NCBI RefSeq assembly: GCF_017348835.2 | Contig: NZ_CP072312.1 | Reading direction: 5' to 3' (one strand) | DNA: 64,000 bases | Origin: Escherichia coli | GTDB lineage: Bacteria; Pseudomonadota; Gammaproteobacteria; Enterobacterales; Enterobacteriaceae | Made by a program: the position numbers | In this document: positions 49,001 to 52,000 of the stretch, piece by piece | Layout of the letters: each line of letters opens with the position of its first letter | How positions within the stretch are numbered: the first letter of the stretch is position 1

Positions 49001-52000
49001 ACGGTGCGCCATCAATGGCAAAAAGCTGCAGGCCGTGCCAGTCATCCTTCAGGTAACGTTCCGAGCCCCATGTCTGTGCGGTCTGGCGGAAGAGCCATTC
49101 CACCGGGGCGGCCCCCACGCGCTGACGCGCCTGGGTGACAGCGCTGCGGGCCAGCAGGTTCATCCCCGCTTCGCCATCCGCGCTCAGGTTCAGACGGCGA
49201 ACCACATCGGTAATTGGCTCATTGCGGAAAAAGGCCATGGCCACCACCATCCAGATAACCATGTCCCCCGGTAAACGACGGCGGCGAACGGTCGCATGCG
49301 CAGAAAGCGTCAGACAGTGCTGTATCCACTCGACGGGAAGGTGCTCTGCAAACAGTTGTGCAGAGGGCGGTGGCATAAGCGGATGGTCACTGAAATCGAG
49401 CAGATCATTGAGAAGTGGCATAAGAAAACGGCTCCCTGTTGTGGAAGCCGTTATAGTGCCGCAGTTTAAGGATCGGTCAACCGATCCTTAACTGATCGGC
49501 ATTGCGCGAAGCGGGAACCCATCTTATATATAACCGGTAACTGCGCAGCCTCCTGCCAGACCATTTTTCGCGGGCACAATATTTACAGACAACCGGAAAG
49601 CCAGTTGATGAAATTGAGGTATATCAGACGACACAGCGATGCCGAAGAATGATAATATAAGTAAAGCCCCGAAAATTTTTCGGGGCTTTACTTATATTAT
49701 CATGACTTCCACTTTCTGAACTGTTCGGCAATCACCCATAACGCCTTGTTGATTCTTATATCACCATCAATACCTGTAATGGCTCTTGTCCTGGTATTTT
49801 TCCCGGAGGCACTTCGCCCCGATAATCCACCTTTTATCATATTCTCCTGAGCCCGCTGCCAGGTTGTCCAGAGATCGTTCTGTTTATTCTCCCGACGACG
49901 GGGAGTAATTATCTGTTCAGGCGTCACTGGCGTTTTATTTTCATCTTCATACCTGACCATCAGTGCAGCTCTGCCAAATAAATGTTGCTCGTCACTGTTA
50001 AGATGAATTTCTTTCATCGCCTCCATATTATCAGTGACCTTATCAAAGACACCGAGTACTTCATACGCTCCCTCGATAACCTGCCCGACAATATCACCTT
50101 TATGTGGAACGCGGATTTCGCCAAAATTATTTCCGCACACCAGGCCATTTGTGCAGACAAAACGAAAAATTCCGGGGATCATCTGATAACTGGATGAACC
50201 ATCATGTGAATTAAGCAGGATAATTTCAGGAACTTCCTGCCCGTTAATATGCCCTTCCCTGCGAAGACGTAACATATGTTTACTGTATTCGCGACGTCCC
50301 AAATCACGAACCCGACTCTGACAGGCAAAGAATGGCTGGAAACCTTCATCACGTAACTTATTGATGATATTGTTGGAATATACGTATAACGTTCACTCCG
50401 GGACTCATGTTTATCACCGGAAAATACCGAAGGCACGAACTGCATTAATTCATCATCCGTTAAAGGACGTTCACGGCGGATGGAATTATACCGACCAAAA
50501 CGGGAAGCTAATCGCATAACAGCTACTCCTTTATGAAAGAATAAATTTAATAAAAAACTTTTCCGCTTAATATCATCCCTCCCGGTCACTATTAACAAGA
50601 TTGCAACAATCAGGAGAAATATTCATCACATCTGGTCAGCAGATCGCCCGGATATCGAGGCCGGCACGCTTAATCTGACGCAGGAACTGTTTGAAGTGAT
50701 CGGCTTCCGCAATGTTGATATGGCGGAACTGCGTATCCACACCCCGGCTGAGCGCGTAGCTATAGCTGAAGGCCATCTTTTCCGGGTGGCTTTTGCGATA
50801 TTTTTTCAGCTCAGTCAGGCTGCTGAATTCCAGGACGTCCCACTCTTCCCCGGTGTTTTTTTCTTCCCGGCAACAAGAAGCGTGTACGACGCGGTGTTAA
50901 CGTGGATATTTCGGGTACTCATCCTGCTTTCTCCTCTCTCTGGTTTTCAGCCCCCATCATCTTTTGAGTTTCGGGAGCCGCGGTTTTGACGTTTTGCGGG
51001 GATCTGCCTTTTGTTCCCTCCGGTATTCACCATCACCTTTTTGAGAACCTTCGCCGCAAGGGGCATCACTGCCACGGCCGGAAACGACTGTCCGGGGGCA
51101 GACCGCAAAAGTTTTTGCCTGCTTTTGGGCAAAAAGTTTTGCGGGATGTACATTTCACCCTGGACTGGCGGAGACGTCTTTGCCCCCGGCGACAGGGGCT
51201 TAAACAGGTGAATGGCACCGGACACAACAACGGGCAGGGACCCGCCGCAACGACGGAGAGCGCGTGCGCGAAACGGCGTTGCCCCTTACATCCCGGCGGC
51301 CTTTTGCCGGAATGCCAGGAGCGCAGGCCACGGCGCGACAGAGGCGGTGCGACCGGAACGGTCGCTGCAAGCCAGGGTTTCGCGTCAGGGATGGAAGCCC
51401 GCCAGGGCGGAGACAGCTTCGCTGGCTCCGTTCACGACAGCCCGCCCCGCCAGGGGGACGCCCGGAAAAGCCATAAACAGGAGAGGAACGGAAAGAAGAG
51501 GAAGAGGAAAAAGAAGAAGAACAATAACAAGCACGGTAACCATAGAAAAATAACATCAGAAAAAAACATTCCGGACACATCACAAACAGGAAGGGTAACG
51601 GGCGACGCGTCAGCATGGCCCGCTTCCCTTCCGGCAGGCGTCAGCCTGCCAGGGGTTTTCGCGCGGGCTGACAGGCGGCCTCCACCGCCTGCCCTGTATC
51701 ACCTGTTTCTGCTGCCCTGAAGGATATAGTGACCACCGAGGAAAACCGCCTGCTGATTCGCCACAAAATCGCAGATTTCATCAACAATCTGCGCGGTGGT
51801 GAGCGGTTTCTGCCCCATATCACGACGCCGCACATTAATCACGGCCCTGTAATTACGCAGAATTTCGCGGGTTTCCGTGTTGATATTCATGACATGTGCT
51901 CCCCGTCCAGCGCCTGTAACACAACGTCCATTGCTTCGCGTTCTTCCCTGACGAATGCGTCACCGTCGCCCCCGTTCTCACTCCCGACGGCATACAGGCG

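Follow-up and report, generated by a model that had tools for sequence, protein, structure and literature searches.

Frameshifted yubO and yubP genes of plasmid pO103 are very probably inherited losses of function

The plasmid pO103 of Escherichia coli carries disrupted copies of two leading-region genes, yubO and yubP, and we propose that both disruptions are very probably genuine, vertically inherited loss-of-function frameshifts that are decaying under relaxed selection. They were found on the minus strand of a stretch of 64,000 nucleotides of E. coli DNA (contig NZ_CP072312.1 of RefSeq assembly GCF_017348835.2), which is hereafter called the window and to which all coordinates refer. A preliminary description of this DNA had pointed to two disrupted genes, and the sequence, the alignment to relatives and the RefSeq annotation all bear it out on both. 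Both lesions are ordinary gene decay already recorded in public annotation, as RefSeq PGAP labels exactly the two intervals as "frameshifted" pseudogenes, under ECO103_RS28400 for yubO and ECO103_RS28405 for yubP. Since intact versions of both genes occur in thousands of related plasmids and RefSeq marks the same two intervals, the disruptions are more than a chance reading of open frames. As expected of frameshift pseudogenes, we found intact orthologues, indels whose lengths are not multiples of three, loss of conserved or domain sequence, and lesions that are reproducible across independent sequencing.

Results

Identity of the plasmid and position of the gene pair

Between positions 49600 and 51000 (1401 nt) the window is 100% identical to NC_013354.1, which is pO103 of the E. 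coli O103:H2 strain 12009; window position x corresponds to position 119993 - x of NC_013354.1, on the opposite strand. The same 1401 nt are 100% identical in 15 PLSDB records, namely pO103 and 14 other plasmids. When PLSDB was queried with this segment, 14999 matching places were returned in 5000 records (about three per record), pO103 having a single place, and no direct repeats of at least 40 nt were found in the window between 49500 and 60500. Parts of the region, for instance DUF932 paralogues, may be present in additional copies on other F-like plasmids.

In plasmid F, the genes for a 95-aa protein and then a 273-aa DUF932 protein directly precede the SLT transglycosylase gene and traM, and the gene order reported for pS88 is yubN-yubO-yubP-yubQ (X polypeptide/transglycosylase)-traM (PMC3438092). 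From this position in plasmid F and this order in pS88, gene order identifies yubO and yubP as an F-plasmid leading-region pair next to oriT. In F-like plasmids, the pair has the hok/psi part of the leading region on one side and yubQ(orf169)/oriT/traM on the other. Our literature search returned no functional study of yubO or yubP, their sole mention being as names in the pS88 expression table.

The yubO pseudogene and its A tract

The yubO-like pseudogene (50636-50922, minus strand) consists of 22 native codons followed by 13 out-of-frame codons and a stop, in place of an intact protein of 95 aa. This reading agrees with the earlier observation that the small ORF stops after 35 codons. It had also been proposed that eight residues in the A run would restore a continuous ORF of about 98 codons; one extra A does make the frame uninterrupted, and the restored length is 95 codons. 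The run, which is A7 in the sense of the gene (T7 on the plus strand), occupies 50856-50862, that is one base to the left of the 50857-50863 first assigned to it, and the intact allele is A8. Alignment to pO55 and pSTEC711_5 showed that the lesion does lie at the homopolymer, as a one-base contraction from A8 to A7. Once repaired by one A, the yubO product of the window aligns with the pO55 protein WP_000107542.1 with zero differences, and plasmid F is annotated with the same accession.

The homologue search returned 143 matches at E <= 0.001, including plasmid or contig records of Salmonella, Raoultella, Pantoea, Cronobacter and Enterobacter. In an alignment of 21 homologues, with identities to the repaired window protein down to about 60%, 15 columns do not vary, an EADHFKQF motif among them, which indicates that YubO represents a genuine protein family, conserved throughout Enterobacterales. 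The truncated gene retains 22 of the 95 residues, and all the invariant columns lie beyond this retained part. The repaired 95-aa protein matched no family in Pfam, NCBIfam or PHROGs. Its AlphaFold2 model, computed from the 21 homologues, is of moderate confidence (pLDDT 70), and Foldseek found no PDB entry with an E value under 0.1 for this model, its best hits, AcrIF9 and ERH, being not significant.

The yubP pseudogene

The larger gene, yubP, runs from 50517 to 49700 on the minus strand, and its intact form encodes 273 aa. Its alignment with pO55 and pSTEC711_5 contains a single 4-nt gap, where CAATCAAT of the relatives is reduced to CAAT by the loss of one 4-nt unit, so that one CAAT unit survives (50369-50372, minus strand). 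This deletion falls inside the bracket 50330-50420, near which a frame change had been said to be required for the gene to read through. The frameshift comes after 50 native codons, and the N-terminal frame meets a stop at 50179. The gene thus retains 50 of the 273 native residues, ending ahead of most of the DUF932 domain (PF06067), which spans residues 36-262 of the intact pO55 orthologue (173.7 bits). The C-terminal 200-aa frame of the window still matches DUF932 above the Pfam gathering score (E 1.3e-38; 133.5 bits). A sequence search of the PDB for solved DUF932 structures returned nothing relevant. Directly after the stop codon of the gene, a terminator-like hairpin with a 20-bp stem occupies 49653-49699 on the minus strand.

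The neighbouring IS4-family element

An IS4-family insertion sequence of 1430 bp (48075-49504, minus strand), with a transposase ORF of 445 codons (48084-49421), is located downstream of yubO and yubP. It is separated by 185 nt from the yubP stop codon, lies on the far side of the strong hairpin 49653-49699 and interrupts neither gene. Copies of the 11-bp direct repeat CGCGAAGCGGG border the element at 48064-48074 and 49505-49515, and pSTEC711_5 has the empty site, with an 11-bp overlap. The Pfam domains Nterm_IS4 and DDE_Tnp_1, the terminal inverted repeats and the target-site duplication all assign it to the IS4 family. RefSeq treats this transposase (48084-49421) as a pseudogene with an 'internal stop', while the window displays an open ORF of 445 codons; as compared with the pO55 copy, this ORF has 10 substitutions and a one-codon deletion. 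Over the element and its flanks (47900-49720), window and pO55 differ by 18 nucleotide mismatches, versus 4 SNPs in the neighbouring gene locus of about 1.3 kb.

Length variation of the A tract among F-like plasmids

It had been recommended to compare the tract length in related plasmids, and this comparison revealed A7, A8 and A9 alleles among F-like plasmids. With identical 36-nt flanks, exact matches were counted in 1573 records for A8 and 90 for A7; for A9 there are 4 full-length exact records among the matches listed and 9 in the band of at least 99% identity, which includes partial alignments. Hence, of the yubO copies whose flanks match exactly, about 6% are out of frame (90 A7 and 4-9 A9, versus 1573 A8). 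In PLSDB, A7 occurs in 137 records, on plasmids of 55-287 kb from E. coli, Salmonella and E. albertii.

Haplotypes were compared at 13 loci over 1289 gap-free columns, the A tract being excluded. By this comparison pO103 (A7) is 4 SNPs away from pO55 (A8) and 12-24 SNPs away from other A7 plasmids, whereas pE2863-3 (A8) is at 0 SNPs from an A9 plasmid and at 3 SNPs from two different A7 plasmids. The A7 allele was found on at least six haplotype backgrounds, and A7, A8 and A9 haplotypes lie 0-4 SNPs apart. These SNP distances indicate that the length of the yubO tract has been altered repeatedly, and in both directions. A control run of A6 in the same gene, 50 nt downstream, yielded no A5 allele in 2489 records. 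On this sequence evidence, the A8 run of yubO is a genuine recurrent slippage hot spot, although some isolated A7 or A9 calls may be homopolymer errors of long-read sequencing. CP022610.1 (a plasmid of E. coli ATCC 700415) and NZ_CP044190.1 (a plasmid of Salmonella Albert), both A7, differ by 0 SNPs at the locus; CP022610.1 has one G fewer in the G4 run of yubP (around window position 49820), which is either a real further frameshift or an assembly error.

The 4-nt deletion among plasmids

The single-CAAT allele of yubP occurs in about 18-20 of the 3340 E. coli records holding the locus (20 in the band of at least 99% identity; 18 full-length exact). All 18 full-length E. coli RefSeq records are on pO103-like plasmids of 42-83 kb, and the carriers include the strains 12009, PV16-126, FWSEC0007 and CEC12044, as well as human, cattle, veal and pork isolates. 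Because the allele is confined to these 42-83 kb pO103-like plasmids, the yubP deletion points to one clonal event. A 2026 population study described the virulence plasmids of the O103:H2 clades C1, C3 and C4 (12009, PV16-126, FWSEC0007, CEC12044) as highly conserved (PMC12831630).

Other features of the leading region

Directly upstream of the yubO start, the stretch 50923-51330 (minus strand) is GC-rich and apparently non-coding. As single-stranded DNA it is predicted to fold into one long imperfect hairpin (-90.5 kcal/mol; z = -3.5 versus shuffles), which may be a single-strand promoter of the Frpo/ssi type, as described for the leading regions of F and IncI (PMC12672017). A 68-aa ORF, named 'hypothetical' or 'single-stranded DNA-binding protein', is annotated at 50947-51153, and a frameshifted hypothetical ORF is annotated as a pseudogene on the opposite strand to it, at 51212-51720. 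The annotation also lists as pseudogenes a frameshifted DUF1380 gene (53996-54482) and a umuC-like DUF4113 gene with a frameshift and a stop (56073-57193).

An Rfam scan of 46000-56000 returned nothing within the yubO/yubP interval, its only matches being an intact FinP RNA and the traJ 5' UTR (46464-46575; 97 and 125 bits). An IS3-family element (45079-46292) truncates the coding sequence of traJ (about 46336-46470) some 45 codons in, and is followed by stcE; the antisense regulator therefore survives without its target gene.

Discussion

Both lesions look like products of replication slippage, which would have contracted the A8 run of yubO by one base and removed one unit from the two-copy CAAT tandem repeat of yubP. 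We propose that establishment genes are no longer selected in a plasmid that does not transfer itself, and so would decay at their most slippage-prone sites. A decayed F-like virulence plasmid, pO103 has lost most of the tra operon and its self-transfer: traJ is cut by the IS3-family element, traG and traD are pseudogenes, and the segment from traY to the N-terminal part of traH has been replaced by virulence genes (stcE, etp, ehx region). By our own count, about 22 of its approximately 83 CDS features (about a quarter) are pseudogenes, including traJ, traH, traG, traD and three other leading-region genes, and its annotation contains no ssb, psiB or psiA gene. As pO103 lacks self-transfer and as yubO and yubP presumably serve entry into a new host, both genes would be under relaxed selection, and this would be why the lesions persist. 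As a counter-point, pO55 is also tra-degraded, yet both genes are intact on it. Furthermore, the A7 allele of yubO is also carried by plasmids whose typing is conjugative, for example pSFO157, Salmonella pAR-0401-2 and one from E. albertii, so that the loss of yubO does not require the loss of transfer, and yubO appears to be dispensable more generally. Losing yubO or yubP may also confer a selective benefit.

The possibility had been raised that the genes are in fact intact, the homopolymer and 4-nt differences being artefacts of consensus or assembly. Homopolymer miscalls are common in long-read assemblies, and some single-record A7 or A9 calls could be errors, for example that of the A9 plasmid at 0 SNPs from an A8 plasmid. 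However, a deletion of 4 nt is atypical as a homopolymer error, the lack of A5 alleles at the nearby A6 run (2489 records) argues against sequencing error, and the same two lesions recur in 15-18 independently sequenced pO103-like plasmids, from differing submitters and hosts. Because they are shared across the 15 identical PLSDB records and the 18 full-length RefSeq records with the 4-nt deletion, on O103:H2 plasmids that are reported to be conserved (PMC12831630), the lesions are best regarded as inherited lineage markers, and an error is extremely unlikely. The IS4-family insertion might instead have caused, or selected for, both disruptions. What speaks for it is mere proximity, the element being 185 nt from the yubP stop codon, but pO55 has the element at the same site, collinear over both junctions, with both genes intact; moreover, the element sits beyond the yubP terminator hairpin, and A7 is present in plasmids devoid of this element. 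The comparison with pO55 refutes such a causal role, to which we attach virtually no probability, and the adjacency of the disrupted genes to the IS4-family element, correctly noted at the outset, is incidental.

The homopolymer had also been suspected of being phase-variable, in which case the A tract would be a contingency switch turning yubO reversibly on and off in plasmid populations. The repeat-length polymorphism is consistent with this view: tract length differs in both directions among close relatives, with A7 on at least six haplotype backgrounds and A9 at 0-1 SNP from an A8 haplotype, exact matches number 90 for A7 and 1573 for A8, PLSDB has 137 A7 records, including Salmonella and E. 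albertii plasmids, and the A6 control run, unlike the A8 tract, has no variants. Nevertheless, tract length does not vary within the pO103-lineage assemblies, which argues against fast switching, and long-read homopolymer error may account for some of the scattered A7 and A9 calls. For an enterobacterium proficient in mismatch repair, a contingency tract of eight bases is short, and the tract counts here 7-8 nt. Furthermore, the orthologues conserve neither the run nor the lysine-rich stretch that it encodes (GREKNT, DKPKNS and ENEKNS occur, KKKN being replaced by REKN, KPKN, NEKN or NENA). It is therefore unlikely, in our estimation, that the A8 run acts as a mutational switch on F-like plasmids of E. 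coli, Salmonella and E. albertii, by which a conserved gene for early entry would be silenced time and again and sometimes restored; were it one, this might be because the YubO protein is costly or because it is sensed by some hosts. Alternatively, full-length YubO could still be made from the A7 allele if the ribosome slipped by -1, or the RNA polymerase slipped, on the A run. Slippage is known to occur at A/T runs, and as read from the sequence, the A8 protein would be restored exactly if tRNA-Lys shifted by -1 on AAA AAA A. The zero frame, however, reads GGG AAG AAA AAA ACA, in which the in-phase heptamer is G AAA AAA and not the X XXY YYZ of a slippery site, so recoding is unlikely; no stimulatory structure was identified, transcriptional slippage to an appreciable level usually requires runs of 9 or more, the majority A8 allele needs no recoding, and recoding is inapplicable to the 4-nt deletion of yubP. 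Altogether we regard recoding as very improbable, and retain inherited frameshifts under relaxed selection as the explanation for both genes.

In itself, this result is of little importance: both broken frames are real, inherited and annotated, and there is no need to pursue them as an assembly error or a switch. As a by-product, yubO emerges as a leading-region gene that is dispensable and contains a slippage hot spot, which may aid functional tests of uncharacterised leading-region genes.

The yubO and yubP genes of pO103 resemble those of plasmid F in their position and orientation, in the repaired YubO, which shows no differences from WP_000107542.1 of pO55, the accession annotated on F as well, and in the 273-aa DUF932 product of yubP; unlike in plasmid F, both copies are frameshifted and yield no full proteins. 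They are also similar to the slippage pseudogenes of other degraded, IS-rich EHEC virulence plasmids, with their homopolymer or tandem-repeat indels, many pseudogenes and gutted tra region; as two of about 22 pseudogene features of pO103, they have nothing distinctive in comparison with these. With the contingency loci of Haemophilus, Neisseria and Campylobacter, yubO shares an in-frame homopolymer whose length varies both ways between related replicons, whereas, unlike in these loci, its tract is short, unconserved in orthologues and stable in the pO103 lineage.
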